Shown: positions 17,243 through 53,276 of the stretch, piece after piece
Position numbering within the stretch: the first letter of the stretch is position 1
Layout of the letters: every line of letters begins with the position of its first letter
Source of the DNA: Bilabrum cf. latius
Taxonomy: Eukaryota
Direction: 5' to 3'
NCBI GenBank assembly: GCA_965178125.1
Contig: OZ237744.1
Span: 496,001 to 560,000, forward strand
Length of the DNA: 64,000 bases
The notes under the pieces: model-generated
What the model saw: only the letters and a program-made list of their open reading frames with translations
Told to the model about the DNA's origin: nothing
Database searches by the model: none
Program-made: the position numbers and the translations under genes

Positions 17243-17500
17243 GAGACACAAGTTGCAAGTGAGCCGAACGCAGTTCGAGTTTCGTAACGAACGTTCCCCA
17301 TGATGACGCTTGTTTGTGCGACCGAGACGACGACAGCACGGCGTGCACTGCGACCTGCTTCAAGCGACCAACCAGCCCTTCGGGGCGCCAGTCGATACAC
17401 TACTTGAACGTTGTAGTAGCTGCAACCTGGTGTTCCACCCGCTGGCTCAGAGGAGCTGACGCGTGACTCGATGATTGCATCGGAACGAGGAACGCAGTAA

Positions 17501-20500
17501 ATGTCGACTCAAGATGACTTTTACAAAATGGGGCACCTCCTTGGACAAGGAGGCTTTGCAGCAGTATACGAAGCCCGTGTGGTTCGCACACCAACCGCGG
17601 ACATGCTGGCCCCCAGCCTTCGATTCCAGCCAATGTCACCAACGGCAAGATCATCATCAACGTCGCTTGGCGCCACTGACACTTTCTCGCCGGCGCCGGT
17701 TCAGAGAAGACATGCATTTTTTCGAGCTGTATCGCCCAGATTTGGTCAGCGCGTGAAACCGACGCAAGTGCGAAGCGGGGACAAGCTGGCAGTCAAGGTG
17801 ATCAAGCGGACGAAACTGCGCCGTGACAAGGAACTCTAGCGGCTTGTGGCTCGAGAAATCGAAGCGCTTACCCTTCTGAGGGGGCATCCACACGTATGTC
17901 AACTCATTAGCGTCCGTGACACGCATCGGGGGAAATGCCTCGCGATGGAGTTTTTGCAAGGCGGAACTTTGTTCGGTCTAATCCGTCGCAAGGGCAAGCT
18001 CTCCGAGGAGCAGACTAGGCAAGCCTTCAGAGGAATCGCAAGCGCGATACGATTCTGTCACCGTCGTGGCATTGTTCACCGCGACATCAAGGCCGAGAAC
18101 GTACTGCTGGCTCGCACAGGCGACCCTGGCACGGCGAAGCTGTGCGACTTCGGCCTCGCCGCTCGGGACTTGGACGCTGCAGGTGCCGTGAAATTGTACC
18201 GCAAGCAGTATGCACGTGCAAAGGCGGGAAAGTATGTCAGCGGGGTGCAAACAGCATCGAACAGCAGCCCAGAGCCGCCTGCACCAAGGAAGCTCACTCT
18301 GAAGGCGGGCACCGCGCTGTACAGTCCGCCCGAAGTGCTCGCTGCTGATGGGTCGTACGATGGCCGCGCTGCCGACATCTTTAGCCTCGGTGTCCTTCTA
18401 TTTGTGTGCATCACGGGACACTTTCCGTTCATTGCCCCGAACGACCAGGCGCTCCGTCGCAGTATGATGTCCAAGCCGCCCGACTACCGCAGGTTCCGCG
18501 CTGCGGGGTGCATGCCGGCGGGGACTGAAGAGCTGCTGCGTGGCATGTTATGCCCAGTTCCTGCCGACCGAATGAAGATTGACGCGGTGTGCCAGCACGG
18601 CTGGACAGGGTTGGGCCCAGACAGCGACGCGGCGTACTATTTAGGGGGTGCTAGCGCCAGGGGGGGTAGCGCCACTGGATTGCATGGCACGTCTCCTATG
18701 GAGCATTCGAGTCATGGCAGCCCAGTGGGTTTCTCTGCGCGAGACTTTGAGCTGACCCCGCGGGGGCCGGGGGCGAGGAAGGCTGGGAGCGGCGGCAAGC
18801 CGAAGAAGCTCGGATCTTCTGGCAAGGGGAAAGGGGCTGCGAGGCTGGTGCCGTCCCCCGTGAACGCTAGCGCCGCCACCCCCAGACGAACCCCAAGAAG
18901 CGAGGCGGCAGCGTCACGAAACTCGGCGGATCTGCCTACTCCGCCAAAGTTTGGATCATCTAGCGGCTCTGCAGCAGCACCTTTCCCAGCAGCAGCAGCT
19001 GCAGGCGTGAAGCAGAGGCGCGTCCCCAGTCCGCAAGGAATCATGGCCATCAGTCTCTCGTCGCCCCAAGGGCCGGCACAGCTCAATTCGAAAGTTGGTA
19101 CTAGTATTGGCGTGCGGCATGGTCGAGCAACAGCCAGAGCACCGGCAAGCGACCTCAGTGCAGGCCACGATGTCTCGTTCAAGGGTGGAGTTGAACTGGG
19201 CCGCAGACGAAGCTCAGTTGCCGAGTCGGTGGCCAGCTCAACGGGGGATAGGAAGAACGACCGTGTGCAAGTCACTGGTAGTATTGATAAGCGCCCTTTA
19301 TCTCCTGAATCGGTGTCTAGCAGCGATGCGGAACCGTTAGAGCCGCTAGGTGCGAGGGATATGCCTCCGGGTATGCTAGTCTCGCCGCCGAGGGTTTAGC
19401 AGCGGCAACGTCTCGGCCCTTCCAGCACATCGCCGGGAACTCTTGCAGCCCGTAGGAGAGTGCTCGTCCCTCGCATAGGTCTTAAAGGCATGCATGGCGG
19501 GCGGACAGGGGCCTCGGGGCTCAAAGACCTCACGGCTGGGTCGGATGCGACTGACGGTGGAGCCTTCAGCCATAGATCAGGCACAGGTAAGGTCAGTGCG
19601 CGAGGCATGGGAAGTTTGCGCACTGGAAGGCGATCTCCACGAGAAATCGCAGCCGTCAGCTTGCTTCGCCTCAACAAAGAGGGCTCCCCTGGCATGTCGC
19701 CGACCAATGCCAGCAGCAATGCGTCGAGTCGGCAGTCTCTCCTTGCCGATGTTGGCCGTTCGCCCCCTCCAGGGAAGGCAAGTGCCGGTGTGACGAGTGT
19801 CAAGCGCTTTGCGTACTCTCGGTAGCGCAAGCACACCGGGCGCACTCCAGCATCGGAAGCACCGCCGCGAGCGAGGAGACCTGAGGTACCGGATTGCTCA
19901 GCGGTGCCAAGGGTCGACGAGTCAAAGACGGATTTGCCTAGCCGGAAAATGAATAAGTCTATGAGAGCGCCTGCATCTACCGTCAAGTCCCCCAACCAGA
20001 TGTTCTGGAAGTCCCGCGAAGCAGCCATGACACCACGGACGCGCTGGCGTCTCGAGCGCATGCAGAAAGCAAGGCAAGCTGCCAGCAAGTCCTCCAAGGC
20101 CTTTGCACGGAAGCGAAAGCTGGAGTCGATAGGCGGGTCCTTCTCTAGCCGCGGTGGTCGCAATGCCATTCTCAGCGAGGACAGTGACTCGAGCGTGGAG
20201 GTCGATGCGAACGCGGCGGGGCGAAGCAAGACTCACAAGACACAACACCACCGATCCAGGGTGGTATCAGCCGCAGCTGGCTCAAGAGGTCACCCTACAG
20301 GGCTCCAAGCTGAAGAGTAGCTAGAACAAGGCGTAACATCGCGCCGCAGAGTGCAAGCGAAAGGTCTTTCGCGCCGTGTAGGTGCTGGGCCTGCGCGAGC
20401 AAAGAATGCTGCCCAGCGCGGCATCGGGGGCACGCGGCGCAAACTAGGTGGCACGCGCGCTGTGCGTGACAATGCACAGTCGGTCAAGAAGAGTAAGGCT

Positions 20501-20824
20501 CGCATTACCCCGGCTGCAGCAAGTGTTTCAATCCCTGTTGCAGCCGGTTCAAACGCAGCGAAGCAGCTCGACGCCAGACACCCGGCCGGCGCCACAACTG
20601 CCCAAGCAGTGGTGTCTGACGCCCGGGGAACCCGCAAGTCTGGTGGTGGAAGGGCTCGCATCCGCTTGTCGGGCATTAAGGCAGTCCGCCAATCGGCATC
20701 GCCGGGGATCCAAAACAGCCCCGTACGGCCGACAGCGATCACGCAGCCGAGAGGGTTGGCAAAGGCAGGTGTTGGTCCAAACAGGCGAGCGCCCCGGAGA
20801 TTGGAACGTCTTGGTGGGCGATAA
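17501..20824 (+). CDS. Ser/Thr protein kinase, CAMK group (SNF1/MARK-like), with a long basic low-complexity tail
   Basis: G-loop LGQGGFAAV, AVKVI, helix-C REIEAL, HRDIKAEN, DFG, GTALYSPPE and DIFSLGV. TAG 17837-17839 falls inside the kinase domain, between the AVK lysine and helix C. More TAGs at 19397, 19823 and 20318; ends at TAA. Confidence 0.92.
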
Positions 20825-20923
20825 GTTGACTAGAAACAAGCAGATCTATAGCATCCCGGAAAAATGTGTACGCACAAAACCACGCAGCATTACGCATTAG
20901 CGATCACTCAAGTTCGCATATCA

Positions 20924-23900
20924 TCAGGACCGCCCGCCCTGGCTGTCCTCCGACGGTTCCAGCGCGCCGAAACCCCCGAAGGCGGCATCGGGGCGACTGC
21001 CGCTGCCTCCACCCGAAGCCATCGCCCTCGTTGAGAATGCAGCCTGCTGTACCCTGGTTGCACCCTCTGTCTGTTGCTGGTACAGCTGCTCTTGGAGCCA
21101 CTTCTGTGCGATCGCCGTGCTGGCCCTCGCGGCCTGCTTTCCGGATCCAGCCAGGATGGGGGCGCGAGGCGTCCACTGCGGCACGTGGATCATTGCCTGG
21201 CTGTCGCGCTTGGCAGCGGGTGTGGTGTTGGGCAGCACCCTCCAGAAGAGAGGAAGGAGATCCTCCCATCGATCGAGCACTCCAGCGGCAAGGGGCGAGC
21301 CAGTCGCCGTGGCATGCTCCTCGACCAGAGACCGCAGAGTCTCCTCCTCGGAAGACCCAAGCGCTACGCGCGCCGGGTCTACCATCTGCGGGTTGTAGCG
21401 ATCCAGGAACTTGTCCTCCACGTCAAGCACAAACGCCTCACCGCCTGACATACCCGCGCCGAAGTTGGCGCCCACGGAGCCCAGCACCACCACACGTCCG
21501 TTCGTCATGTACTCGCACCCGTGGGCGCCGACTCCCTCCACGACGGCCTGGGCACCAGAGTTGCGCACGGCAAATCGCTCACCGGCCCTGCCAGCAGCGA
21601 ACAGCTTGCCGCCTGTCGCGCCGTACAGCACAGTATTCCCGCAGATGACGCTGTGGTGATGCTCATCAGGCACGTCGGCAGGGGGCGCCAGCACGATCTT
21701 GCCGCCGTACATGCCCTTGGCCACATAGTCGTGCGCCTCGCCGCGCAGCACGAGATGCATGCCTCGGTTGCAGAAGGCACCGAAGCTCTACCCCGCCACG
21801 CCGTGGAAGTTCAGGTTCACTGAGTCTTCGGGTAATCCCTGCATCCCGAAGCGCCGTGCAATCTCACCGCTGAGCCGTGCTCCGACTGAACGGGCACTGT
21901 TTGCGATCTGGAAGTGCAGATTAAGACCCGAAGTAGAGTCGTCTAGTACCGGACCAGTGACGGGGAGGTCAGCGGCAGCGCCGGCTCCTGCGATAGGCTA
22001 CCCCGCAGCATCCTCGCTCTCGGCATGCCTGGCCATCGCATCAAGCCTCTTGCGGCACGCGCGCCAGACTTCCTCATCCAAGCACGTCGTGGCCATGTCA
22101 CCGGCGGTCAGCAGCTCATCATCGGACAGGTTCCTCTTCCCAGGCTCCCTGCCGCACTTGACAGGCCTTCCCTTGGCCTCTTCCGGCATGTGCAGCAGCG
22201 CCGTCAGATCCATGCGGCCCTTGGGGAACACGGCAACCTCCTTGCCCTCCGTGCTCTTGAAATCCTTCGCCTTGGCAACGGCATCGGGGTCCTGCAGCCC
22301 GTCCACCGAGTCCTTGGGGCGCAGTAGGTCCACCCTCCCGACAGCCTCGTCCAAGCTTCGCAGGCCCAGAGCCGCCAGCTCGTGCCGGACTTGCTCGGCG
22401 GTGTGCAGAAGGAAGGTAACCACGTGCTCCGGCTTGCCCTTAAACTTTGCGCGCAGCTCGGGGTCCTGAGTGGCGATCCCAACAGGGCAGGTGTTCAGGT
22501 GGCACTTCCTCGCCATCACGCACCCAAGCGCGACCAGCGCGCTCGTGCCAAAGCCGTACTCTTCGGCGCCCATCAGCGCCGCCATTACCACGTCACGCCC
22601 AGTTTTGATGCCTCCATCCACCCGCAGCACCACACGGTCACGGAGATCGTTCATCATGAGCACCTGCTGCACCTCGGCCAGGCCGAGCTCCCACGGTAGG
22701 CCTGCGTTTCGGATGGAGGACAGGGGGCTCGCGCCGGTACCTCCATCATGCCCGCTGATCTGGATGATGTCGGCATTCGCCTTTACCACACCGGCTGCAA
22801 TCGTACCGATGCCAGCCTCTGAGACCAGCTTCACGCCTACCTCGGCGTCTTTGTTGACCCTCTTGAGATCGTAGATCAGCTGCTTGAGGTCCTCGATGGA
22901 GTAAATGTCGTGGTGAGGAGGAGGGGAGATCAAGGTCATCCCTGGAGTCGCAAACCGGCGGTCGGCAATCTCCTTGTTGACCTTCTTGCCCGGGATGTGA
23001 CCGCCCTCGCCTGGTTTGCTGCCCTGCGCCATCTTGATCTCGAGCTGGTGCGCGTTCACGAGGTACGTGGGAGTCACGCCGAACCTGGCAGAAGCCACCT
23101 GCTTGATCTTGCTGTTGGCCAGATCGCCCTTCTTTGGGTGCCAGTAGTCCGTGTGCGACCTCTCTGGCATGTCGCGCTCGAACGGCTTGTGCCTAAGGGG
23201 ATCCTCACCGCCCTCACCAGTATTGCTTCGGCTGCCTAGCTTGTTCGCCGCGATTGCCATCACCTCGTGCACCTCTGCTGAGATGCTCCCGTGGGACACC
23301 GCCTGCGTGCTGAAACGCTTGGCGATCGAGTACGCGTCTTCCACTTCCTCCAGTGGGATCGGGGGATCGGCAGCCTCAAGCTTGTAATCGAGGGCATCTC
23401 GGAGCGCAGTCAGCGGTCTGCCGTCCGCCTGCGCAGAGTATTTCTCGTATAACTTGAACCCGCCCTCCTTGCTGGAAGCAGACCTCAGCTTGTTAAACAC
23501 AAGCGGGTTGAGAGAGTGGTACTCGCCGCCTCGCACGTGACCGTACGCTCCCGAGCGCGGCAGCGCAGTGCCCCTCTTGTATACGACCGGCTGCCCGTAC
23601 GCCTCAACGTGCCTCTCCAGGATGTCTCGCCCCAGGGCTTTGAAGCCGACAGTGGGCAGGCGGTTCACCACGCCGTTAAAGCACGTCTCCACGACTTGAT
23701 CAGACAGGCCGAGCGTCTCGAAAGTCTGTGCGCCACGGTACGAGTCCACAGTGCTGATGCCCATCTTGCTCATGATGCGGAGCAGACCGTCCTCTAGCCC
23801 CTTCCGGTAGTTTGCAAGGGCTTCTTCCACGGTGGCCGGTGGCTAGCTCTCTTCCGCCTTGGTTCCGATGCCTGCCTCTGCCTCCGTGATGCGGGCCTGA

Positions 23901-26450
23901 GCCAGCTCCGCCACAGTCTCGTACGCCATGTAGGGATGGACGAGGGAGGCCCCGAAACCAATCAAGCAGGCGATATGGTGGTCCTCCCTCGGTTCAGCAG
24001 ACTCCACGAGGATGGATGCGGCCATGCGCGACTTTGCCTTGATGAGCCCGTGGTGCACCGCACCCACTGCCATGAGCATGGGGATGGGCGCCTTGCTCGG
24101 GCCCACCGCCCTGTCGGACAGCACGAGGTACGACACGTCCTGCGACTTGATGGTCGCGAGTGCCTCGTCCTGCAGCCTCTCCACGGCCCGCTGCAGGCCC
24201 TCTTCGCCCTCGGCCGGGTCAAAGGTTGCGTCCAGCACGTGCGAGCGGAACTCAGGGTGGGACGTGATCCAGTTCATCTGCTGCTCAGTGACGATGGGCG
24301 AAGGCAGCCGGATGAGGAAGGCGGCATGCTGGGACTCCTCCAGGATGCGACCCTTTCTGCCGAATGTGATGTTAAGTGACATCACGCGGCGCTCCAGGAG
24401 CGGATCGATGGGCGGATTTGTGACCTCCGCGAACCGCTGCTTAAAGTAGCGGTAGATGTGCTGGGGGTGGGCAGAGAAGGCCGCGATCGGTGTATCGTCA
24501 CCCATGCTGCCGATGGGCTCGTGGGCCGTGTCCATCATCGGCTTGAAGATGAGCTCCTCGTCCTCCTTGGAGTAGCCGAAAGCCTTCTTGAACCTGACCC
24601 GGTTGTCAAGCCTGTCCTGCACTTCTGGCGCCACCTCTCGCTTCTCTGCATCAGCACGGCGCTTCTCCTCGGCAGGACCAAGCACGCGCATCAAAGTCTT
24701 GGCCGTGACCAGCTGCCCCAGCCCCTTCGTGCTCTGCACCACGTGCTTGATGCTCCGGTTCAGCCAGGACTGGTAGGGCATTCTCCTCGACAGAGAGTGC
24801 TTGATCTCCTCGTTCCGGAGGATGCTGCCCATGCTCCCGTTGCCGTCGCCCACGGTGACTGCCATCATCTCTCCGGGACCTAGGCGGCCGCGTTCTACCA
24901 CGCGCTCCACAGGCAGGTCAACCAGGCCCACCTCAGAGCCGAGGATGACCTTGTCCGATTTCGTGACCCAGTAGCGAAGGGGCCGCAAGCCGTTGCGATC
25001 CATCGTGGCTCCTGCCATCAGCCCGTTAGAGAAACAGATCGCGGCAGGTCCGTCCCACGGCTCCGACAGGGTGCGCTGGTAGTCGTAGTACGCTCGAAGC
25101 GCTGGGTCCATGGTCGTGTCGTTCTCGTGCGCCTCTGGGATGAGCATGCTGATGGCGTTGAGAGGGTCCCTGCCGCTTGCAACCAGCAGCTCGAACATGT
25201 TGTCCAGCGCTGCTGAATCGCTGCCGCCAGGCTAGATGATGGGCTTCAGGTCATCGCTGTTACCCTCTCCGAACAGGTCCGTCTGGAGGGTCTCCTCCCT
25301 CATCTTGACCCAGTTGATGTTCCCCTCCACCGTGTTGAACTCTCCGTTGTGGGCGATGGCGCGGAACGGCTGGGCAGTTGCCCACTGGGGGAACGTGTTG
25401 GTGCTGTAACGCTGGTGGAAGACCGCCAGAGCCGTCTGGAAGTCCGAGTCGTTGAGGTCGGGGAAGAGGTTGCACATGTTGTCCGCAACCACGAGACCCT
25501 TGTAGCACAGAGTCCGATGCGAGAAGCTCGCAGCGTAGAACGGCAGGGCAGCATCGCCATTCGCGATGTGCTGGTCATTCAGCGCCCTGATTTTGTTTTC
25601 GATCTTCTTGCGAGTGATGTAAAGAGCCCTTTCAAACCCGTCGTCGTCGTTCTGGAACCTCGCTGGCCTCTTCATGATCAGCTGCTGGATCTCGGGGAGC
25701 GTGTCGAGAGCGCCGTCACCCAGAGCGAACGTTCCGACCGGGACCCGGCGCCACGCTACCACCTCGATTCCGGCAGCTCCCACGGCCTCTTCAATTGCCG
25801 TCACCATGCCGGCCATCTGGGCAGGCGTCGCACCCGACCTTGCACCCGGCAGGAAGAGCATGCCAACCGCGAGATCGTCGTCTCGCGTGATCTTGTGCCC
25901 GAGACCTTTCGCATCGAGCTTCTTCCGGAAGAAAAGGTGGGGCATTTGCGTCATCAGACCCACCCCGTCACCGGTGAGGCCATCGGCAGCACGCGCTCCT
26001 CTGTGCTCGATGTTCCGCAAGGCCTCCAGAGCCTGCGACACTGTCGTATGCGTCGGAGTTCCTGCATTGAATATTGACAAGAGGTATAGTAGGTTTACTC
26101 GTGTGCGGTAGCAAATCACGCCGAGGAAGCGTTCAGAGAGTAGGTACGATGGTAGCGAAGCGGCGTGGATGCAAGTACGGAAGGTTTGCACGAGCTCATG
26201 AGAGCGACCCCAATAGCGCAAACAGTCTGAGCATCTCACCGGTCAGATCCGCAATGAATCCAGTGCCGCAGCTGTCACGCTCATGCCGAGTGTTGTACAA
26301 GCCTTGGGAGGGCGGACAATTGTCGCGAGACGCCACCTTGCCATCTTTGCCAAAGGTGACAAACCCGCGCCTCGTACGCAGTAAAGTTCCAATTTGACTC
26401 CTCTACAAGACTTTTGAGAAGTAATTTGACCTTATTGTGCGCATTGCCAT
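20924..26450 (-). CDS. gltB: Glutamate synthase large subunit (GltB / Fd-GOGAT-type, no fused beta subunit), 2 exons (intron 26062-26239), with N-terminal presequence
   Basis: Exon 1 has GLYNTRHERDSCGTGFIA (Ntn catalytic Cys). Downstream motifs are HQRYSTNT, HNGEFNT, EPWDGPA, DRNGLRP, TNPPIDP, SNTGEGGE, KQVASARFGV, KMAQGSKPGEGG, the 3Fe-4S motif CVMARKCHLNTCPVG and AGERFAVRNSGA. Five TAGs (26403, 25232, 23843, 21998, 21788) are read through; ends TGA TGA. Confidence 0.96.
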
Positions 26451-26819
26451 TCCTTTTCTGATTCACTGCGATGGTACAGGGCAGCTGACGCGTCGTGAAA
26501 GTGGGACACTCGAACACGCTTTTCTGAGCAAATAAGTCATAGAATCGAAAGAATCCTGAAGAGATAAGATGCTACATTCTGATAGAAAACTTACGTATGT
26601 GCTATTTAGAGAAAAATAGCCAAGCACAGGGAGAAATGTGCCGTACGAGCAACTGCAAGACGTGTCTCCGGATCTTTATTGCTCCGGATTTGCGTTGCAA
26701 CCACCACCCAAGTACCGGCGTAATTATTGGCCGAGCCTTCAGTCAGCAATATCTTCGACCACTGCGACAAATAGTGTTTGTACGACGTAGAGTACTTTGG
26801 CTGGTCCAGCTACAGCCAG

Positions 26820-37123: not shown

Positions 37124-37277
37124 GATTCAATGGCACCCCTACTGACGAATACAGAGCATCCATGTACAGTGATGTTTGGGCCGATAGTGGTATACTGATC
37201 GGATCAATTCCGAGTACGAGCTGAGCGAGACCAGCGCTCTCACTTAGGGGAATTCAGAAGAAGATAAAGGAAATAAT
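37124..37277 (+). repeat. Split direct repeat A1 (154 bp)
   Basis: GATTCAATGGCACC...GGAAATAAT, identical by eye to 43453-43606. Its last two bases form the AT of the ORF1 ATG. Confidence 0.95.
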
Positions 37278-39626
37278 GCTCAGCCAGCAGAGTGCGCAAT
37301 GGAAGCAAAGCAGGGCGATCGTGGCGCGAATGACCACTCGTATGGCCCCAACGGTGAGGCGGAGGGTGAACGCTGTGGGTGGCGTTTTCGATGTGTTTCA
37401 AGGTATGGCTGTTGAACACATGTCGAGCTTCTCGGAGCCTGTCGTACGCGAGGCTGTGAACATGCTAAACAAAGAAGGGGCAGATGCGCAGCGGGCTCTG
37501 TTGGGCAGCTGCGTACGCGGCCACACGCCGGTCGCTTCCCTGGGCGCAGCGGCTGCCGTTATGGGCGTGTTCAAACCGACCACGACGCCAGACGTGGAAT
37601 CGGGCCTGCGTGGCGCTCTGGAAGCGGCAGCAGGGTTCTCAAAGGACGATCTGATGCCCGAGGACCATGCAGTTCGTCGGCGAGCGCGGCGACGGGTGAA
37701 AACTCAGGCCAAGATGCGACGGGCAGCAATGGGGTGCCCCCACTCTGGGGAGCACCGGTGATCCCGGTACCATCCGGGGCATCAACAACAGCACCATTCA
37801 CGGGGTCAAGGACTGAACGTGTAGCCGGGGGGCCGATGGGAGCGCACTCACTGGGCTGGGGCATCATGGACGGTGGCGGGTTTGGGTGGAAACTGCCTGC
37901 CCCAAGCGGGGGGGCCGGTGCAGAGGCGACTGCTACCTCAGGCCATCCGCCGAGCGAGCTGGGCCTCTTTGATTTTGGGGGCGGATTCAGCCATGGTGGA
38001 GTGACTGCGGCCGATGCTGGGGCGGGTGGCAAACCAGCGGGAGGTCCAACGGCACGCCGCGGTGCCAGCGCGGTGTTTGGGGCACAGGCGTCGATGGGCA
38101 CCATCTCGGGCGCAACGCTGGGAAAAAGGGGGAGAGCGGAAGAGGTGGGGGAAGCACAAGCTCCCTGGGAGGCCATTGTGGCGGATTCGGAACGTCGCAC
38201 CAAGGCGGCAAGGCGCGAGCAAGAGGCCGAGGGAGCATCCGCGGGAGCAGGAGAGGCGACCGCGAGTGACGTGATCGACAAGCGAATTCAACAGGCGGTT
38301 GCGGCCATGGCATCGGGTGAGCCCAATGGTACGTTGTAGTTGCTCCGTGCCCTTGCGCTTGAGTTAAATGCCCGGCCCGAGCACTCCACCCAGGCGATTA
38401 AGTCGTCAGCCGGCGCCTGCAAGAAGTCACCATACCAGGGCCAGGTCGGAGCAGACGATGGAGACGGCGCCAAGGAAGTGCATAATTCCATTCCCACGGC
38501 GAAGGGAGTTGACTCTTTGTTCTACGACACCGTACGGTCTTAGGAGGTGCTTCAATTTAGGGACAGTGCACGGTATTTGGCCGAACTCGGGGAGGAAGGC
38601 GAGAGAGCTAAGGACTTGGCCTCAGTGGCGCTGACGAGTGCGGACAAGGCAAAGATTTCGTTGCTTCGGATTGAACGCCCCGCGCAGATAATGTTCGCTT
38701 CTATGGCGAGTGCGGCTGGTTTTCGCCGGGAGTCAGGATCTGGCCGCAGCTTTCATGTGGCACCGGTGCTGGAGGAGGCGGGTGATTTGCTCATGCCGGA
38801 CGGGATCAGGCAATTTGCGAGTAAGTGCGGGTAGCACGTGTTGTCGGGAGTGGCAGAACTGGAACAAGGCAACATTTTTCGATTACCCACGATATTGACC
38901 AGATCGGTGTGTGGGGCGCTCGAGGGGGTCGTGGCAGGGAGCACGTCGTTGCTGAAGGTGGTTATCAAACTTGCGACACTGCTGCACCAGGATAAGCATG
39001 CGGAAGCCAGGGCAGTAATGAGCAAGCTTCACGAGGCGTTGGAGATTGCAGTGCGAAGAATGTTCCTGGGCTTAGGGATGGTCCTTCATGCGGCAGCAGT
39101 CCGCACGGCAGGTGGAGGCAACGGGGACACAGCCAATACGGGTCAGCATTTCGTGTTAGCAACTGCTCTGCGCATGATTTTGATACATAGGGTGGCACCA
39201 GTGGGGAGAATGGATACTCCTGCGGTGCTTCGACTGTGGTAGTTGCGGAGCGAGAACGAGACCCCGCTGCGGATGACGCAGACTCAGGTGGGGCCCACGT
39301 GGGAATTACTGGGACTGAATCCGGCAGGCAACCATAGCGCTATGGCGTGGGAGGATGTGACAGCCGCGATAGACAAGTCAGCATTGGAGCGAGCAAAGCG
39401 GGTGGCAAAGGAGCATGGGGCCGCAGCTGGAGGAGCGGGGGCAGCGGCAAAACGGTAGTCAGCGAAGGCCAGCAGCAGCAGCAGCAGCAGCAGTAGCGCG
39501 AGTGCGGGTGGACAAGAGTCGCAGCAGGAGTCAGAGCGCCACAAAGGGACGACATCGGGGCCCAAAAAGTAGGCGGAGCACCGTACCTCCCCAAGACGAA
39601 GTGGCCGACTAGCGGGGAATGGGTGA
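37276..39626 (+). CDS. Retrotransposon ORF1 (gag-position protein) with one frameshift near 37660-37745
   Basis: 37276-37761 ends at TGA. The overlapping -1 frame (fragments 37734, 38340, 38547, 38838, 39243) continues through TAGs to TGA 39624-39626. The gag assignment is by position only. Confidence 0.65.
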
Positions 39627-42018
39627 CGCGGCCCGAGCCAGGGGAAGGGCTGCAGTAGTGTAGGCATGTGCACTATCTTCGGAAGCAGCGCAAAAAATCC
39701 TGGCTCAGCAGAAGACTCCGACCCTACAGCGTGGTGAGCCGAGCCTGCGGACACTGGATGGGCGGTGCATTGTGACGGACATCATGGAACACGCGGACGA
39801 ATTGTTGGACTAGGTTGCATCTGCAGGCCCCTCGAGACGATGGCACGAGGTGCAGATGGAAGCAGCCGGCTATTCTGTGGACAATGACGGTGATGCGGGA
39901 GCGGGGATGACTGGGGATGCGCCGTCAGCATTGGGTGCGGACGGGATGTGGTAGGCTTGGGCACGATGCCTGGCAAAGCGGGACAAGATTGACTTGCGGT
40001 CATTCCCACCGGGCTAGGCACCATCATCTGCTTTGGACGTCTGGTATGGAACGTTGTCACACTGGGAGCGTAGGGGCGAACTGCAGCAGGGGGAGCGATG
40101 GGCAGCACGCTAGCCGTGTACGCTGTCACCTCGTGGAGCATGGCAGGCACATTTGGCTCGTTGTCGACGCTGCGGGGCGCGGGGCGCAGTGGAGCCCGAT
40201 TGTGTAGCGGGCCGGGGGTTTGTTGGACTGGCACGACATGGGCTTCGGGCGGAGGCAGTCTTGAAGGTGTTGGGGGCGCAGCCGGTACGGGCTGACCCGA
40301 AGGACTTGCCGGCGGACGAGGAGGATGTAGTCCCGTTCGTGGAAGCAGCAGCGAGTGCAGGCAAGATTCGACCGGTGGAGGGCGCCGCGGTCTAGGTGAC
40401 GCCTATGTTCGTTGCCAAGAGGACCGCAATCGAGGTACAGCAGCGGGAGGGTCAGACACCACGCTTGGTGCAGCGGGAGGACACGACTGGCAAGCAGCGC
40501 CTAGTCACGGATATGAAGCGCTCGGGCGCGAACGAGGCATTTCTTGACTTGCGTTTTCGGTATGGTGATTTTGCTCGGCATTTAGCAGAGCGAGTGGGAC
40601 GTGACAGGCATGAATGGGGGGCAGCCTTCGATTTCAAGGCGGCATATCATAGTATAGCGCTGGCACCGGGGCTGCAGCGATGGATGGCAGTTCGCGGAGT
40701 GGGTGGCAGCATGTTTTAGTTTGTGGTCTTGTCGTTTGGTTGCAGAATGGGCTGTTTTGTCGCATCAGTAGTGTTGGCAGAGTGTCTAGCGGGGGTGCGA
40801 CTGCGCACCGCACATTGGGCTTTTGGGTACATTGATGATGGCTTTCTGTCAGCACGTACGGAGGCCCGCACTATGTAGTTGTTGTGGTGTGCCGTGCTTG
40901 TAGCGCGGGGGATTGGCATGAGGATATAGCCTAGCAAACTTACCTTTCCAACATAGGTGATTGAGTTCCTTGGGCTAAAGATTACCCTGGGAGCCCACTT
41001 GAAGGTGACACTGCGCTCGGATCGATGGCCACGGATCCACGCAGTGCTGAGGACCGTTGAGCGAATGCGAGCTTTCAACATGCTAGCAACGAGTGCGCTG
41101 GCGGTCAAGGCTGTGGAGAAACTGGCAGGACAGTTGGGCGCGGCTGCGGCAGTAATCCCCCACGCTTCGCAGCACGTGTTTGCGATATACTAGGCGGCTG
41201 CAAAGGCTCGCAAAGGTGGTAGGCACATCTGGACGGCAGAGTTCAACGAGGAATTTGAGTGGTGGCTGACATGTAGGGACCGCGGTATCTTGACAGCGGC
41301 AGCAGCTGCACCGATATACCCGTTGCCGGAGGGGAGAGCATCCGTGTTTTGTGCTGACGCGTCAGCCCATGGACTGGGTGCAATGTGGCGCCGAGGCAAT
41401 GGTGATTCTGGCTTGATGCAAATGGGTTTCCACGAGGACATGCAGTTACTATCCAGTACGGCACGCGAACTAGCATCACTACGAGCTTTTTTGTCAGGAC
41501 CAGGCTAGTTGGCGAGGAGCCAGACTTGCCCAGAGGCGCTCTTCGTGCTGTCAGACAATCAAGCCCTGCCAAATTTGCTGCGGAAGGGCGGCTCGATGAA
41601 GGCTGGGTAGCGAGATGAGCTGCGAGAGATTGGAAGGCTGGCTGAGAACTTGGGATACGTTATCTTCCCCGTGTGGTAGAGGCGAAGTACACCGATCATG
41701 GTGGCATGCGATAGATTGAGCAGGGTGGAGGACGGTGCTGGTCAACTGGTGTAGACGGCGGGGCAGCGCGTGGGCAAAACGGGGTTTGTCTCGGCGGCAA
41801 GGGCGACATCTGACTCAACTTTTCATGCACCATTTCATCTTCACAGGACCATTTGGGGAGCTGATCCCAGTGACTGGACGAGCAGGCTCAAGTGCTGCGG
41901 CACAACGGCGAGCAGCGGTGGCGGCGACTAGGACCCTGATGCTGTAGGAGAGTCAGCAGCTCGGCAAGGGAGCTCTGGACGCGCGCAGGCGGAATCTGAC
42001 CATGCAGGCGGAACTTGA
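39415..42018 (+). CDS. Retrotransposon ORF2: reverse transcriptase + RNase H
   Basis: One frame with ~17 TAGs and no TAA/TGA until 42016. RT motifs: KQRLVTDMK, AFDFKAAYHSI, VLSFG, GYIDDGF, IEFLGL. RNase H motifs: ADAS, ARELA, LSDNQ, CDRLSR. The start codon is uncertain (39415 or 39619). Confidence 0.92.
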
Positions 42019-43063
42019 GGTCGTGGATCCGGTGGAGGCCATGTGGGCTTTGCTGACGGAGTAGTGCGCCGCCGGGTTGAAGTATGCCACAGTGTTGCGA
42101 TTGTTCCAAGCGCAAACGGCGTGGTTCAGGTCAGCGGAGTTCCCGCGTACCCCACTCGCAGACGTGGAGTACAGGCAGGTCAAACTGGCCCTGCTCGGCT
42201 ACAAGCGTAGATGTGCCGGGGCGACGGATCCGGACGCGGTACGTGCCCTACGTGTCCTGGTGGACAACCCTGTAACGTTGCGAGCACTAGTGATGATGGC
42301 CTGGTAGCTGCAGGCAGAGTGGGATTCGATGTGGCAAGGCCCAGCTGCGCTGGCCCGTGCGGACTACAACTCAACACCAGCGGTTCTCGATACATTTATG
42401 TGCTGCTATGTGGGGACATTCTGTGGCTTGGCCCGGTGGCCAGATCTGGTGCATCTGGCAATAGGGGAGATAGAGTGGACTGCAGCGTCTGATGACAACG
42501 AGGTTGTTCCCGTGGCACTGATTGGGTGGCAGCGGTACAAGTCGCGGGTGCTCGGCGGCAACCCCGAGCAGCGCCCGCCAGCGGTCATTCCATGCTTGCC
42601 GGATGGATTCGAGGAGTTGTGCCCGTATCGGTGGCTGAAGTGGTGGGTATCAGTTCGGTAGCCAACACAAGGGCAGCGCGGGGAAGTATTCGCCTCTCGA
42701 ACACGGGCTGCGCACAGTGCCACGCTGCAGTGGATAACAGCGCAAGGGATTCCTGTGCACCGCAAGGGGGAGGGTGTGTACGCCTTCAAGAGTGCGGGAG
42801 TGTCAGCATTGCGCCAGACGGACCCAACCAAGGACGAGAAGTACGTGCACGGCCAGGCTGGGTGGTCTCTGCCCAACATGCCAGCGGTGTATGATCGTTA
42901 CTCATTGATGGAAGCGGCAAGGGTTACGAGGAGTGGGATTCTTCGGGCTATGGTGGGAGCTGGCTCCATCCCAGAACTTCTGAAGATTTGGGAATCCCAA
43001 CGCAGGGAGCTTCACCGGAGCCCAGTGAGCAGTGGTGGGGATGAACGGGATTCAGGGCTCTAA
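41735..43063 (+). CDS. Retrotransposon ORF3: tyrosine recombinase
   Basis: Fragments 41735, 42077, 42329 and 42755 join across TAG and end at TAA. Motifs: GLARWPDL (Arg I), RYKS (Lys), LCPY, YAFKSAG (at the HxxR position) and QAGWS...MPAVY (Trp, Tyr nucleophile). Overlaps the end of ORF2. Confidence 0.8.
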
Positions 43064-43071
43064 CTGGGCCA

Positions 43072-43451
43072 GTGGGTGTTCCTTGCGGCGTTCGATGGGC
43101 GAACAGCCAAAAGGGGGGCCCAGTGTAGATCCCGTGGCCAGTGGCAGGTAGTCCCCATAGCGGCTTGAAAGGTCCGTGCCGCCTGCCCAGTGCCCGGGGA
43201 AGCACCAGCCAAAACCAAAGCGCCACGGAAGGAGGAGATTACGAGGAGCAGGTACTAGGTACGAGAGTGGAAGCTGAGGGCAGGACAAAGCGGCCAGCCG
43301 GGCCTAGGCGGCACGGAGACGGCCGTGCTAGCGACAGACGAGTGGGCGACGGTGGGTAGCGGCGCACGAGTGGCGCGTGGCGGGAGAGGGAGAGTGCTGG
43401 GGGAGCGAAGCATTGAGCGGTTGATCGACAGATCCACATTACCAACCATCA
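43072..43451 (+). repeat. Split direct repeat B1 (380 bp)
   Basis: GTGGGTGTTCCTTGCGG...CCAACCATCA, identical by eye to 44891-45270. The ORF track gives identical peptides for both copies. Confidence 0.95.
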
Positions 43452-43452
43452 T

Positions 43453-43606
43453 GATTCAATGGCACCCCTACTGACGAATACAGAGCATCCATGTACAGTG
43501 ATGTTTGGGCCGATAGTGGTATACTGATCGGATCAATTCCGAGTACGAGCTGAGCGAGACCAGCGCTCTCACTTAGGGGAATTCAGAAGAAGATAAAGGA
43601 AATAAT
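43453..43606 (+). repeat. Split direct repeat A2 (154 bp)
   Basis: Copy of 37124-37277, separated from B1 by a single T. Confidence 0.95.
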
Positions 43607-44890
43607 TTTTACTTTTTATAGAATTGTTTCTTGCCTTGTTGGCCCCATTTCCTTCGGATATGGATGGGGCGGCACCGCGGCGGAGGCCGGGAGGTGAGGG
43701 GGGACCAGTAGTTGGCGGACAACAGAGGGGCCTACAGCTGAAGGGAGGGGTGCCAGGCGGATACGGTTTACTCAGCGAGACAGGGCGTCTTAGGGGCGGG
43801 TAAGTGTGTGTGTGTCACTGCTGCCCGGTAGTGTGTGTAATATTCTCTTGGGAGGGGGGCGGAGGCAGACCGCTCCTCCTCCCTCCGCACTCAGTACCAG
43901 CATGAACCAGCCCTCTTTTCTGTTCATGTGGACCCCCTGACAACGGGGGGACCACGTGGCACCCACGCAGGATGGCGACGCAGATTCGGAGGGTACCAAC
44001 ACTCATACCTAGCTACCAACATTTAAGCGTTGCGGAGGGCAACGGAACGGGGCCAGGGAAGCTGCGTGCGTCTAGCCATCTAGAACACGTGGACGAACTG
44101 GTGGTGGCCTTTGCCACCATCCCATTTCACCAACCAGATGAGGCTCCGTGGTCGCATCTGGTGCCGATGGCCACTGTTAGCAGGACCGTTGGTGGGTGGC
44201 TTGGGGGGCCAGGGACTTGGCTGAGTCAAGTAGGCGTGGGAGTAGGGGTGGGTGCGGTCAGTATGAGGTCCGTGCCTCATGTTGTTCGCTGTAAATCCGG
44301 CTATAGGTCGGAAGCAACCCACCCTCCCGGTTGCAACAGTGGGGACGGGTGTGAGGTGGCCACGCGTGAGGTGGTCATAAGACTGGGAGCAGAGGTGTGG
44401 TCCGTGCCGTAAAATCCCCCATGTGGAGCACCTCTGTTTTTCTGGAAGCACAAAGAACCGCGTTGCGGGCCCAGGAAACTTCTGTCCTTTGGATGGCTCC
44501 GTGGCCGAAGGGGGACAGAGTGACCTGCACAGCCGAGAGGAGAGCCTGAATCTCGGATCGACCCTGGGACAGTCGCACCGGCGACACCCACCGAGAGAGC
44601 GAGGCGAGATCCTGCACAGCGTACGCTGCAGTGGAGGACCACTGTGGTGCTGCAAGAGGCACGGCAACGTGCGGACAGCAGCCGGACCCCGTATCCTCAC
44701 AGAGGGTAAGGCAATGGGAGCCTGAATAGGAGCGGACCGGGTGACGACTGTGCTGGGGCTGCGGTGAGCATACAGGACCGTGTCGAGCGTGGTGGGCTGG
44801 GCGGGATGTGCGAGCGGTGATGCCCTAACTCGATCGAGTTCAAGATTTTTTCTTCTTTTTGCGTGGTGGCGTCCCCTAGGTCGGGGCGGC

Positions 44891-45270
44891 GTGGGTGTTC
44901 CTTGCGGCGTTCGATGGGCGAACAGCCAAAAGGGGGGCCCAGTGTAGATCCCGTGGCCAGTGGCAGGTAGTCCCCATAGCGGCTTGAAAGGTCCGTGCCG
45001 CCTGCCCAGTGCCCGGGGAAGCACCAGCCAAAACCAAAGCGCCACGGAAGGAGGAGATTACGAGGAGCAGGTACTAGGTACGAGAGTGGAAGCTGAGGGC
45101 AGGACAAAGCGGCCAGCCGGGCCTAGGCGGCACGGAGACGGCCGTGCTAGCGACAGACGAGTGGGCGACGGTGGGTAGCGGCGCACGAGTGGCGCGTGGC
45201 GGGAGAGGGAGAGTGCTGGGGGAGCGAAGCATTGAGCGGTTGATCGACAGATCCACATTACCAACCATCA
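44891..45270 (+). repeat. Split direct repeat B2 (380 bp)
   Basis: Copy of 43072-43451; defines the right end of the element. Confidence 0.95.
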
Positions 45271-45654: not shown

Positions 45655-48075
45655 TCACGCTTGCACACCGCCGGTGATGTCAAGGTTCCTCAAGGTTGCA
45701 ACGAACGCCTGCACTTCCTCTGGCCAGTGCTCCTCGGGGCGAACGGAGCAGACCGTCCCACTAGTAGTACCAAGCGGCCGGGCTATATCACCGGCTGCGG
45801 AGGCCTCCGGCGACGCTGTTACAGTCGCAGCAGATTGGCTGGAGGCAGCAACCTTCTCGAGAATCCTACTCGACTCGGATCTAAACCGCGCCGCGTATAC
45901 GGCTGCGGAGGCGGTCGCCTCTTCCGTGTGAAGCTGATCGACTAGCCTAGCACCTGACGTGAATCCTCCCGACGCCCAGGTTTTCAAAGAGGCAGGCACC
46001 AACGGCGCAGCGGCGGGATCTGCACGAGCCACGTCAGAGCCAGACTGGGAGCCAGAACGACTCTCTGTGTCGGCCGAACAACGCACCGAATCCGCGTCAA
46101 GCCTCCTTGCGGCAGCAAGCCAGGTATCGACCCACCACGGCGAGGGAGCTCGGAACGTGGCCCCATTCACGGTGTACTCGAGGGAGTGCAGGCACAGCCC
46201 TGCTGGTAGCAGCATGGTTGGCTGCGGATGTAGACGAAAAATGGGCCAATGGAAACGGTCCAAATCGCGGTTCGACCTACTCGATTGTGGATAAGACATC
46301 TGGCAGTGGTGCAAGGCGGGGGGAGAGCAGCTCACGTGTTCACCGGCTGTTCGGGTGTTCGCGGTCGACTCGGCCTATCTGCGATTTGCCATGACATCAA
46401 GCTCATCGAGCGGCCCTGGCATAGGGAGATACGCGATGTCACCGACAATGGGGTGCCCCAGCACCGCGAGGTGCGCCCTAATCTGGTGGATCCGTCCGGA
46501 CTTCGGCCTGCACGCAACGAGTGTGCAATCGGAAATCGGGTCGTATCGAATGGGCAAAAAGTACGTGCAGCATTCTTTTCCAGCGTGCGAGGCCACCACG
46601 GCCGAGAAACCACCCCGGACATGATGCAATGGGACGTTCACCCTAAGAGCACGGCGACCAGAAGGCAGGGTAGGCAGCACGGTTGTGCTGTCGTCTCCCC
46701 TGCCAGCTACTGGACCATCATCCGCATCGGCTGCAGCGGGTCTGTCATCAACCAAAACAGTGGAAATGTGATCGCTCCAGTCCTCCGAGGGATCGAGCGT
46801 TCCAGGTCCCTCGCCGTCCTCTGCCGCTGCAGCAGCCAGTGCAGGTTTTATGACTGGGTCTGGGTCTACTGCCGCGGCACAGGTAGCTGAAGCTCCACCA
46901 CAACCTGCAGATGCGGCGCGTTGCTCGTGCTTTACCTCGACTGCACGCCTCACCGCGCGAGCCCCACGGCTTAGCCGTCCTCTACCTATCCTAATTGCAT
47001 CCCCCAGCGGAGTAGAGGCGAGGCATTCTGCCGCCTCTGACCCAAGTGAGCGCAGGGCCATGAGCCACAACGGGGGCACTTCCCACTGGTCGCCTTGCTT
47101 TGCAACTTGAGGGGAAGCTGCGCCAGCTCGGCCTAGAGGTGCTTCATCCCCAACTGCAGCACGGCCTAGAGGATCGCCAGGGGGGGTGCTACCAGCGTCA
47201 GCACCTGCGTGACGACGGCTGTGCAGGAGGGTCACCAGTGGGATGTCTGGCCGCTGCTTGACAAGGGCTGCTCGGGAAATACGCTCCGCCCGGGTCTCCT
47301 TTTCGGCACCCTCCGGTGAATGTGTGGAGTTTACTTCTGGGTCGGACACTGCTGGCCTGCTATGGGTTTGTGTCTGCTGTGCTTGCCTCAGGCTGGGCTT
47401 GGCAGATCCTTGTCGCCGGGCAAGCTTTGCTACCGTCGCGATTAAGTCTCCGTAGGCGAGGGCCAGGTACATCTTTTCCGTTGAACTCGATGATATCTAT
47501 GCCTAGATTTCTTTTGCAGCCGAGGAGGACCGCGCAGCCAAAAATACTCCACTAGTTGCCAAGTCAATCCGGTTTGCGGGCCGAAGCCCTCGTAGCCTAG
47601 CATCACACAGCCCCGCAATTTCTAGCGCAGATAGCCTTCCATACTTTCCGCAGCTATGTACCGGCATCATACTTGGTTTTGTTAGTGCAACCACGTCTTT
47701 AGAGCCTCCTACGACCTGCAACATTGGTCTCGATCTTGCCATTGGCTCCCTCCGCCGAACAGTATGTCCTACCCTATCTCCGGCCTTCAAGACATCGGAA
47801 CCGTCGGTTCTAATACCGTTTATTGTAAGAGCTCCAGATACGGCATCAGAAGTCACTGATGCACGCGAGCAGCTTCGAAACTCAGCCTCCCATGCATCCA
47901 CAAGGCTTCTGCCTGCCATTCTAGCCTTCACTTTCGTAGTAAAGGTCGTCTCGTACGGTTTTACAGTGAGAATGCCACAGTACTCACTGAATGTGGAGGG
48001 GAACTTTGCGCTCATGACTTCGAATGGGGTGCAGGAGCTGTCCCGTTCCTCAACAGTTGCAGCTCCGGACGGCAA
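45655..48075 (-). CDS. RluA-family pseudouridine synthase (RPUSD2/Pus8/Pus9-like); 5' end uncertain, probably with an exon up to ~48400
   Basis: S4-like region, KPSMMPVH, catalytic NRIDLATSG, EKMYLA, GRIHQIRAHLAVLGHPIVGD and LCLHS. Fragments are joined by TAGs at 47503, 47497 and 46375; ends at TGA 45655. Confidence 0.88.
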
Positions 48076-48512
48076 AGAGCAACGGGCGGCAAAACGTTGC
48101 TTGTACTCTCGTAAGCATGAAGATACTCGGACTTGTCCCTTCGAGCGTACTTGATCGTAGAATATCTCGCATCACTACGTCAAGGCGGCGCCCGTTGGCC
48201 CTTCGAATCGATGTCTGGGTGGCAGCAAGCGCAGCGTGCGCACATTGGTTCACGGGGTTCGGACTGGGTACCGATGGTTCGAGTATTGGTACAGCCGTGG
48301 CTGTAGGGTTTATAGTTCTGCTTTGCTCTTCGTTGCTGCGGTCTTGGTCAAGCGAAGCAGATATGGCGATCGCTTGGACCTAGGCTTCAGTCCGATCGAG
48401 CACGCACGTATTGATTGAGCCTCATCCAGGCCACGGGGTTTCAGCAATTAGAGAACTGCAGCAATTTAACTTTAATAGTCTTACCTACTGGCCGGTTGAA
48501 CTTGGGATATCT

Positions 48513-51500: not shown

Positions 51501-53276
51501 CACCCGCTGACTGCTGCTGTTAAGGCAATCGAGAGCAGCATCGTCCGCCCCGGGCCTGCCTGTGACGTGAACGTGATGGTCCTGGAGGCGGTGCCACAGG
51601 CTAGCACTATTCCCAGCAGCGGTGACAACGGCTCTCCGAGTTAGGCAACGCCACGCATGCGACGATCACGGAATGGTGGAGCACCGCGCTCGAGCACCTC
51701 TGCTGCGCGCGGCAGTCAGGGTCAGCGTGCTTCCTCTCGCTCTCGCGGGCGGCCCGAGGGCGTGGCGCAGGGAACACAAGCTGCCGCGTCGGCGGGCATT
51801 CGATGGTCCTGTCACCCGCTTGGCGGAAGCAGCAGCTCTGTGCACCAGCATGAGCAGCTGCCTTGCACTGCTGATAGTCTGCTCGAGGCAGCCGAGCAAG
51901 CTGCTGACCGTGCTTCGCGGGGCGACGTCGTCTGCGTGACTGGTTCCGCGATTCATCATGCGATCAATGAGGCAGCTCGGGAGCAGCGGGGCTGGAACCA
52001 TAGAAGGCCGAGAGCTGCAGGCATCGGGAGACAGAGGCGCGCAATGGGCGACACGAGCTGGAGTCCCGATGCAGGTCCCTGGTCGCAAGCTATCGGAAGG
52101 CTCTGCCAGACCACACCCGTATTCGCGCGTGTGTCGCCGCAGGAGAAGGAGGCAATTGTCAGGGTGCTGCGAGGTCTTGGAAGGAGGGTAGCGTACTGCG
52201 GGGACGGGACCAACGACGTGGGTGCGCTGGTCGCCGCAGATGTCGGGTTAGGTGTCATGGCAGACCTGAAGGATCGCAACGACCAGTCAGGTGCTAGCCG
52301 GCCGAATCCGTACAAGAGCCCAAGGTTCGCGCAGATGGCACTCGCGGCTCTGTGGCGGAGTGTGGTGTGGGGGGCGGGGCAAGACAGTCCGTACATCAAA
52401 AAGCTGCTGCTCCGCTGCACGGCACTTGAGGCTAGCACGCTTCGAGCCGAGCTTCGAGCCTCTTGGGGCACGCGCCTGTCGCAGTCTCTCGCCATTCAGA
52501 CAAGGCTGCAAGAAGTGAAGCACAACATGCTACAGTACGCGGATGCAAGCGGTGCGTCCTCAGGCCAGGGCGTGTCCTAGGCGGCGCCTTTCGTGTCCAA
52601 GCAGCCCGGCATTCGTGGACTGGTGTCGCTTCTAGAGTGCGGCAGGCTCGCTCAAGGAATGGCGCAGCAGCAGCTGGCCTTCTCCACTGTGCTGGGCTTG
52701 CTGCCGACCGTAGTGGCGTGCGCAGGATTCATCGCTGGTGCGGAAATCACGACCCAGAGCTAGATGCCGCTGGTGGGATGCATTTTCCTGAGCGTTCTCC
52801 TGGGTGGTCCCATGCTCGGGCCAAGCCTGGCTGAGCTGGGGCCCGGCCGGCCTTCACGGGTTGCTGCGGGAGGCCAGTCCATTGTGGTGTCGGTGGGCAT
52901 CGTGGCTATTGGCGGCATGGCGGCGATTCTCTTTGCGCTGGGCAGCAGCTTGGGGCAGAGCCAAATCGCCGACTGCCTCTCCTACATGCTCGTCACGCAG
53001 TTGCTCCAAGCGCTCGCCCTGACGAGCGCTGGCTCGCCTTCCGTCGAGTCGCCTTGGAGGGATACCGCTGCCGGTACGATCGTTGGATTTGCCTTGCTGC
53101 TATCGAGTGCCAGGGCATTCGCAACGATGGGGTGGCTGCCTGGCTTCTTAGAATCGCTCGTGGGATTCGCGTCGGTCGGGGTATCTGCGTCGTCGGAGCA
53201 GCTGCTTGCCGTCTCTAGCGTTGGAGGGTGGATCGGATGCCTTTTTTGGTCCGTTCTAGTTCAGGCGTTGTACTAA
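48513..53276 (+). CDS. P5-type P-type ATPase, divergent, with low-complexity insertions
   Basis: VDEAILTGES, RTGF, CFDKTGTLT, ACHSL, GDPMEKA, KGAPE, MVTGDHPLTA, FARVSPQEK, CGDGTNDVGAL and AAPF all lie in one frame broken only by ~10 TAGs; ends at TAA. Confidence 0.92.

Follow-up and report, generated by a model that had tools for sequence, protein, structure and literature searches.

What does UAG mean in the genome from which this stretch of DNA comes? The window analyzed here (64,000 nucleotides, G000:C10:496001-560000, in a eukaryotic assembly of 48.6 Mb and 111 contigs) carries on its minus strand, at 20924-26450, a gene interrupted by five in-frame TAG codons. If TAG is read through, four pieces merge into one frame of 1712 residues ending at TGA, and all four Pfam domains GATase_2, Glu_syn_central, Glu_synthase, and GXGXG lie in order within it. 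Judged by this domain order—central and FMN-binding domains included—and by an N-terminal cysteine that follows a leader, the gene is the large subunit of glutamate synthase, of the GltB/Fd-GOGAT type. The answer that we regard as very probable is that the nuclear genome has completely reassigned UAG from stop to glutamine (Gln), with UAA and UGA kept as stops, a code of the table 15 type. Across the window, stop-to-stop frames of at least 500 residues number 5 under the standard code (3,096 amino acids in sum), 15 with TAG read (17,111), 6 with TAA read (3,603), and 15 with TGA read (9,122); frames with TGA read are thus as many as those with TAG read, but much shorter in sum. The gene is laid out as follows.

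20924..26061, minus strand: main coding exon of the glutamate synthase, with four in-frame TAG codons and the TGA stop at 20924-20926
26062..26239, minus strand: GT..AG intron of 178 nt, spliced out in contigs of runs X1 and X2, retained in X5
26240..26450, minus strand: upstream coding exon, with the ATG at 26450, a basic presequence, the cysteine that opens the GATase domain, and the fifth TAG
26403..26405, minus strand: the fifth TAG, in the presequence exon, its letters unchanged in a spliced X2 contig
26466..26594, minus strand: GT..AG intron of 129 nt in the 5' untranslated region, from run contigs of X1 and X2 and a reading of the DNA ends

The basic presequence may direct the enzyme to an organelle. 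Contigs of runs X1 and X2, which represent two separate studies, are spliced at both introns, and the X5 contig crosses them unspliced; the runs carry no record as RNA, and it is the splicing that points to mRNA. All five TAGs are covered by X2 contigs and four of them by a single X1 contig, with no other letter at any, and the spliced contigs keep the TAGs unedited. The TAGs are therefore neither intronic nor edited in the majority form, which is the form that assembled contigs show, since rare variants are dropped in assembly.

Which residue UAG specifies is a separate matter. The first-pass annotation of this DNA had proposed that conserved glutamines of the glutamate synthase are encoded by TAG, quoting two codons in the contexts GVAGxSFGAF and LKPIIxPGGSDSAALDN (x marking TAG), and had drawn on further contexts in an RluA-type frame (AKEIxAxIS, minus strand, 47503-47505 and 47497-47499) and a P5 ATPase frame (ALASxGKRVLA, plus strand, 51195-51197). 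All of these codons are present as quoted; three others in the same glutamate synthase gene (21998-22000, 23843-23845, and 26403-26405) had gone unmentioned.

21788..21790, minus strand: TAG where the motif G-x-A-G-Q-S-F-G-A-F has its invariant Gln; all 120 of 120 homologues carry Gln here, and the Pfam score is best with Q
21998..22000, minus strand: uninformative TAG within an insertion specific to the lineage, where 118 of 120 homologues have a gap
23843..23845, minus strand: uninformative TAG within a variable loop, where 103 of 120 homologues have a gap
25232..25234, minus strand: TAG at a Gln/Glu column of the GATase domain; Gln in 13 of 14 close eukaryotic homologues, Glu in 57 and Gln in 46 of all 120
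47497..47505, minus strand: two TAG codons in an RluA-type pseudouridine synthase, Pfam score best with Q of five residues
51195..51197, plus strand: TAG in a P-type ATPase frame (48018-53276) with 11 TAG codons and a TAA end

The Gln interpretation is borne out most clearly at 21788, where the GXGXG model also scores Q highest of seven residues (258.4 bits, followed by K at 256.2 and E at 256.1). The plural in "conserved glutamines" does not carry over to 25232: that column is divided between Gln and glutamate (Glu), and the GATase_2 model gives Q and E an identical 483.4 bits, so that Gln is not singled out. Only one of the sites first proposed, 21788, is strong. The RluA context suits Gln (49.2 bits, against 46.8 for E and K); the stretch around the ATPase TAG at 51195 matched no Pfam family under any of five residue readings, and a PqqF-like family scored Q and E equally. 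The preference for Gln over leucine, tyrosine, and Glu holds overall, with Glu excluded mainly by dynein, paralogue, and Ras columns that lie beyond the window.

Genome-wide, in-frame TAG is present in many intact genes. The 10 dynein heavy chains used, of 19 matches, hold 152 TAG and no TAA or TGA in 46,887 codons, in frames that were picked as free of TAA and TGA. Their alignment columns were read against two reference sets, the first of 120 homologues, mostly animal inner-arm dyneins, and the second of 150 diverse ones. With the diverse set, TAG stands for Q in 10 of 10 columns conserved to at least 80%; at 70% or more the tally is 11 Q and 2 E, and at 50% or more it is 15 Q and 7 E out of 26. 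The mean column profile of 59 dynein TAG sites lies closest to that of CAA (distance 0.054) and CAG (0.075), followed by GAA at 0.309. Within-genome alignments of paralogues, comprising 30 kinesin, 18 ABC, and 30 DEAD loci (the ABC set leaving out L107, on a bacterial contig, and L126, a second piece of L125), place TAG at 15 Q and 1 R among columns at least 70% conserved, a tally identical to that of CAA. The kinesin P-loop Gln and the DEAD Q-motif are among these columns, and no TAG falls on the Glu columns of the same alignments, which hold 178 GAG and 29 GAA.

The switch-II Gln of Ras proteins, matched as a motif 16 times in 30 loci, is written TAG in 8, CAG in 6, and CAA in 2. TAG supplies 7% of the Gln codons of dyneins, 10% of those in a random sample, and 21% of those in Ras genes, and TAG and CAA use climb together as the local GC content of third codon positions drops; by its usage and columns, TAG behaves as a minor synonymous Gln codon. 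The switch-II share of 8/16 exceeds even the 21% of the Ras genes (p about 0.007; L275-L304), and several of these switch-II TAGs sit directly after an intron.

A candidate decoder is at hand. A single nuclear gene for a transfer RNA (tRNA) with anticodon CUA lies at G000:C23:907607-907679, minus strand, scores 69.8 bits with Rfam, and folds as a cloverleaf at -25.6 kcal/mol. A pattern search, of a kind that would miss tRNAs with introns or long arms, returned 14 hits and no second suppressor tRNA: among 13 checked, only the C23 gene is a nuclear tRNA, and the fourteenth hit is a mitochondrial tRNA-Arg. A DNA search with tRNA-CUA matched only itself. The gene is identical at 50 of 73 positions to the organism's own tRNA-Tyr(GUA), at 50 of 73 to tRNA-Gln(UUG), at 44 of 73 to tRNA-Gln(CUG), and at 39-43 of 73 to the Trp, Asp, and Arg(CCG) tRNAs. 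Its acceptor stem (12 of 14 bases) and anticodon stem (8 of 10) follow the organism's own tRNA-Tyr; on direct reading, its D-stem, T-loop, and G73 match tRNA-Gln(UUG). Rfam scored 63 of 780 tRNA candidates, which leaves the nuclear tRNAs for Leu, His, and Glu(UUC) outside these comparisons.

G73, G2-C71, G10, U35, and A37 are given among the bacterial Gln determinants in PMC9976931 (cited, like the other papers below, for the excerpts at hand), and tRNA-CUA carries all of them. It has neither A73 nor G34, which the same excerpts place among eukaryotic Tyr determinants, and no long variable arm. We infer that it is charged with Gln, by comparison with a bacterial set, since those excerpts of PMC9976931 give no eukaryotic one.

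The genome has one GlnRS gene, and one cytosolic and one organellar GluRS, identities that we take from synthetase motifs. In the mechanism that we propose, tRNA-CUA would be charged with Gln by this single cytosolic GlnRS and would read UAG only.

A viral origin for tRNA-CUA was considered and found no support: the best phage matches are 75-82% identical over part of the gene, and pattern hits are no closer than host tRNAs. Sixteen viral contigs (L323-L340) matched the tRNA-CUA pattern, and the tRNA-CUA genes printed from them share the suppressor's D-arm. These viral genes are 47-52 of 73 identical to that of the genome, a likeness that gives no evidence of transfer because it is no higher than that of the organism's own tRNAs and was preselected by the search pattern. 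Phages that use TAG for Gln ("code 15") carry tRNA-CUA genes; the codon meaning is the same as here, but those systems are viral and condition-dependent.

The release factor eRF1 would be the second component. Its gene, on contig C35, has two TAGs within the N-domain, the first where 90 of 94 homologues have Gln and the second at position 69; the release factor itself thus cannot be made without reading UAG. The GTS, NIKS, and YxCxxxF motifs, Glu55, and Ser70 are intact. Aspartate replaces Asn30 (Asn in 78 of 84 homologues), valine replaces Ser60 (Ser in 89 of 96), DIEPP stands for DFEPF, and histidine for Lys130, in human numbering as deduced from motifs. Loss of UAG recognition may have come about through these N-domain changes together with Leu69 to Gln; in PMC5304391, L69A raises readthrough, that of UAG above all. 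Among metagenome relatives found through eRF1, the best identity is 72%, and no in-frame TAG was seen in coding parts in the 34 of 79 loci printed.

TAA and TGA still serve as stops and do not occur inside genes. At 20 of 30 Ras loci, the protein closes with a Cys prenylation motif, and TGA (16/20) or TAA (4) comes directly after it; the 10 dyneins, whose C-terminal ends resemble one another, all stop at TGA (8/10) or TAA (2); and in 200 kb of sequence together with the window, 23 closed coding frames, identified with TAG read through, end in TGA (19/23) or TAA (4). TGA is the dominant stop in all three samples, in DNA of about 60% GC. There is no excess of TAG near the ends of the 23 frames, and none of 30 genes with a defined C-terminus ends in TAG, in what is a small sample and not a genome-wide one; because the stop samples are small, they leave room for a rare terminal UAG. 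Table 6, in which both UAR codons mean Gln, was rejected, as TAA ends genes and reading it adds little frame length. No tRNA with a UUA anticodon is among the tRNAs seen, an incomplete set from which no search was aimed at UUA.

Several observations weigh against so complete a change of meaning. With the mostly animal dynein references, the TAGs in columns conserved to 90% or more fall on 13 Q, 7 E, 1 S, and 1 L. With the diverse references, at the 50% threshold, the Glu share of dynein TAG (7 E:15 Q) is still above that of CAG (17 E:195 Q; Fisher p 0.003). In the Ras-like locus L283 (G000:C4:1390773-1391189), TAG-TAG occupies the switch-II Gln-Glu pair, the clearest single site with TAG at a position normally held by Glu. 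The tRNA-CUA is without G36, U38, U1-A72, and G3-C70 of the bacterial Gln set, and it is not close to tRNA-Gln(CUG). The second eRF1 TAG falls on a column that is Leu in 90 of 98 homologues and Gln in only 7 of 98. Of the 34 metagenomic eRF1s printed, which come from organisms of unknown code, 7 carry Gln69 as well, so that no single eRF1 change is diagnostic. Finally, Gln at TAG in the protein is a deduction from DNA, and assembled contigs could hide partial editing.

These points bear differently on the competing explanations. The one that survives best, improbable though it is, holds that UAG is ambiguous—mostly Gln, with some Glu—because GluRS also charges tRNA-CUA. It would accommodate the Glu excess at moderately conserved dynein columns and the TAG-TAG of the Ras-like gene; in addition, the anticodon loop of tRNA-CUA is one base off the organism's own tRNA-Glu(CUC), and its U11-A24, U13-G22, U35, and A37 are bacterial Glu elements according to PMC9976931. 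The Glu share of dynein TAG is, however, not above that of CAA (5 E:17 Q; p 0.74), an ordinary Gln codon with a similar share, and the genome's own dynein paralogues have CAG or CAA at 6 of 7 displayed Glu-type columns. Glu was inflated in the first dynein tally because that reference set is narrow and mostly animal. TAG never stands at Glu columns in kinesins, ABC proteins, or DEAD proteins, nor in dynein columns at least 80% conserved, and many essential genes tolerate it at invariant Gln.

It is quite unlikely, too, that UAG is dual in meaning as it is in Condylostoma or Blastocrithidia, specifying Gln inside genes and ending translation close to the poly(A) tail. The intact eRF1 motifs and residues listed above would fit such a system, and the last 10 codons of the 23 closed frames hold no TAG against 7 CAR, with fewer than one TAG expected. 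The 20 Cys-terminated GTPases and the 10 dyneins nevertheless all stop at TGA or TAA, and in three window genes the contig 3' ends lie 31-66 nt beyond TAA or TGA. In five frames with a TAG at most 60 codons from the stop, the sequence after TAG is clearly coding-like in three and scores near zero in two, and all five scores are above the post-stop mean of -0.22.

That the standard code applies, with the TAGs being U-to-C edited, spliced out, assembly errors, or pseudogene lesions, is very improbable. We found no support for it, beyond the concession that contigs from runs not recorded as RNA would hide partial editing; the spliced contigs of two studies retain the TAGs with no other letters, the dynein frames, picked for their lack of TAA and TGA, exceed 3,000 codons and hold 152 TAG, and a dedicated tRNA-CUA gene is present. 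A further possibility, that TAG stands for a residue other than Gln (Leu, Tyr, Ser, Lys, Trp, or pyrrolysine), is suggested by the usual Leu at eRF1 position 69, the tRNA-Tyr-like acceptor and anticodon stems of tRNA-CUA, and an ARAGORN label of "Pyl" that is given to every CUA tRNA, and can be all but dismissed, as column tallies in GltB, paralogues, dyneins, and Ras point to Gln, L and Y have the lowest Pfam scores in most tests, and tRNA-CUA lacks a long variable arm and the Tyr determinants A73 and G34 of PMC9976931.

The complete reassignment of UAG to Gln thus remains the reading that we follow, and the organism in which it occurs is most probably a bicosoecid stramenopile other than Cafeteria, as its genes suggest. 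The nearest named homologues are from Cafeteria and bicosoecids (57-59% identity for GltB, 66-69% for eRF1). In a quick GltB tree (31 of 121 rows), a 15-row clade has full support (Shimodaira–Hasegawa-like approximate likelihood ratio test, SH-aLRT, 100), its only named members being Cafeteria and Bicosoecida sp. ms1; against this, eRF1 groups with Cafeteria only weakly (SH-aLRT 86; 35 of 121 rows). Outside the clade that this GltB forms with those of bicosoecids, the closest relatives listed are bacteria (Trueperaceae, Marinithermus, planctomycetes), which hints at an old gene transfer; the gene also has its basic leader.

The mitochondrial contig (G000:C111, L049-L052; 38.4 kb) has a tRNA-UCA, reads by table 4 (UGA = Trp), and shows the order atp8-atp1-atp6 and no tRNA-Thr; its gene names are presumptive, recognized from translations. 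The recognizable mitochondrial genes listed all end in TAA, and there are very long rps4-like and rps3-like frames. The same mitochondrial features are described for Cafeteria and Cafileria (PMC6723347), though they are not exclusive to bicosoecids. A relative with DNA about 93% identical, spanning three TAG sites, is present in run X4, and protein P0282 is an eRF1 fragment 90% identical; sister lineages have thus been sequenced already.

The code has rare precedents elsewhere, so far among a small number of ciliates and in a single anaerobic flagellate. PMC11687900 gives UAG alone as Gln in Iotanema, Hartmannula, Trochilia, and Protocruzia. Like the present genome, that of the fornicate Iotanema spirale (PMC5304391) has UAG = Gln, UAA as stop, and an altered eRF1 N-domain, but the lineage is unrelated, and its eRF1 change is T32G in GTS, a motif that is intact here, where it is position 69 that differs. 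The same paper describes position 69 altered to Ala in a rhizarian with UAG = Leu. No tRNA gene is given for Iotanema in those excerpts, which predict descent from tRNA-Gln(CUG); here the gene is found and is only 44/73 identical to that tRNA. The ciliates Hartmannula sinica and Trochilia petrani, and also Protocruzia tuzeti, have the same code with no sign of dual meaning (PMC11687900). The excerpts report that H. sinica and T. petrani yielded no suppressor tRNA, in contrast to the tRNA-CUA gene described here, and UAA ends 86.9-98.3% of genes there, whereas TGA dominates in the present GC-rich genome. Users of table 6 (many ciliates, ulvophytes, Hexamita, Streblomastix, Amoeboaphelidium; PMC11687900) share UAG = Gln; they differ in that TAA is a stop in the present genome.

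Closer to home, Cafeteria roenbergensis/burkhardae and other bicosoecids share the mitochondrial UGA = Trp and atp8-atp1-atp6 order (PMC6723347). The annotation of Cafeteria GltB covers the full length of the protein, and NGTS, TASNIKS, and Leu69 are all as usual in Cafeteria eRF1. In the excerpts of 10.1101/751586 and PMC6723347, a variant code is mentioned for Cafeteria and bicosoecids only in the mitochondrion. No nuclear code change in a stramenopile appeared in the literature searched, from which subscription papers and supplements were mostly absent, so that a prior report may exist; a term search of the excerpts of PMC11412368, PMC6492006, PMC13768787, PMC10120064, and 10.1101/751586 likewise gave none.

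This is probably the first nuclear code change in stramenopiles. Rather doubtful is the fuller proposal that it is the first and that the suppressor, moreover, arose from tRNA-Tyr(GUA) and not by a one-base change of tRNA-Gln(CUG). Under that proposal, changes of A73 to G and of G34 to C would have removed Tyr identity, the D-arm and discriminator would have become Gln-type, and the suppressor would work with an eRF1 whose Leu69 codon became TAG. The tRNA-Tyr ancestry is its weak step, because tRNA-CUA matches tRNA-Gln(UUG) just as well overall and was compared with an incomplete set of tRNAs.

Other features of the window and assembly complete the picture.

17501..20824, plus strand: protein kinase gene with four in-frame TAG codons and a TAA end, from its frame and Pfam
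39361..42018, plus strand: reverse-transcriptase frame of a retrotransposon, with 18 in-frame TAG codons (Q 45.8, E 45.0, K 44.9, Y 38.2, L 37.5 bits)

An X1 contig spans the kinase region at 17348-20855 unspliced, with no other letters. The reverse-transcriptase frame is written in the host's TAG code, Q being narrowly the best reading. The retrotransposon spans 37124-45190 and has split direct repeats (37124-37277 = 43453-43606; 43072-43371 = 44891-45190), a layout that we take to recall tyrosine-recombinase (Ngaro-type) elements; its second frame, 41735-43063, has no Pfam match. An ordinary tRNA-Glu(CUC) gene lies at 1210-1281 of the window, with three copies seen in the genome. Elsewhere, two nuclear tRNA-Ile genes have the anticodon GAU (G000:C32:91173-91245 and C4:952092-952164), where eukaryotic tRNA-Ile usually has AAU. 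Besides the rRNA array on C12, a second, different 18S rRNA gene (L054, G000:C95:6099-7900), which to us resembles that of dinoflagellates, is probably from a contaminating eukaryote; G000:C82 (L107), with a bacterial-type ABC transporter locus at 44% GC, is a contaminant contig.

The known code of table 15 thus turns up in what appears to be a new supergroup, with a tRNA gene and an altered eRF1. Nuclear codes that separate UAG from UAA are rare, and for the cases in which UAG alone means Gln a decoding tRNA has been lacking, as far as the excerpts of PMC11687900 and PMC5304391 extend. Here, one contiguous genome offers the tRNA-CUA gene, a single GlnRS, the GluRS genes, and the altered eRF1, with Cafeteria as a relative of apparently standard code; with these in hand, two questions become testable—which eRF1 changes abolish UAG recognition yet spare UAA and UGA, and what enables GlnRS to charge a tRNA with a CUA anticodon. 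Gene calling under the standard code fragments the proteins of this organism, and a protein search gave only a TAG-free fragment of its eRF1. With this finding, a eukaryotic supergroup probably gains a code change, and the genome concerned, GC-rich and with TGA as its preferred stop, differs from those of the ciliate cases. As bicosoecids host giant viruses, this organism may also be a candidate host type for the giant viruses reported with TAG = Gln.

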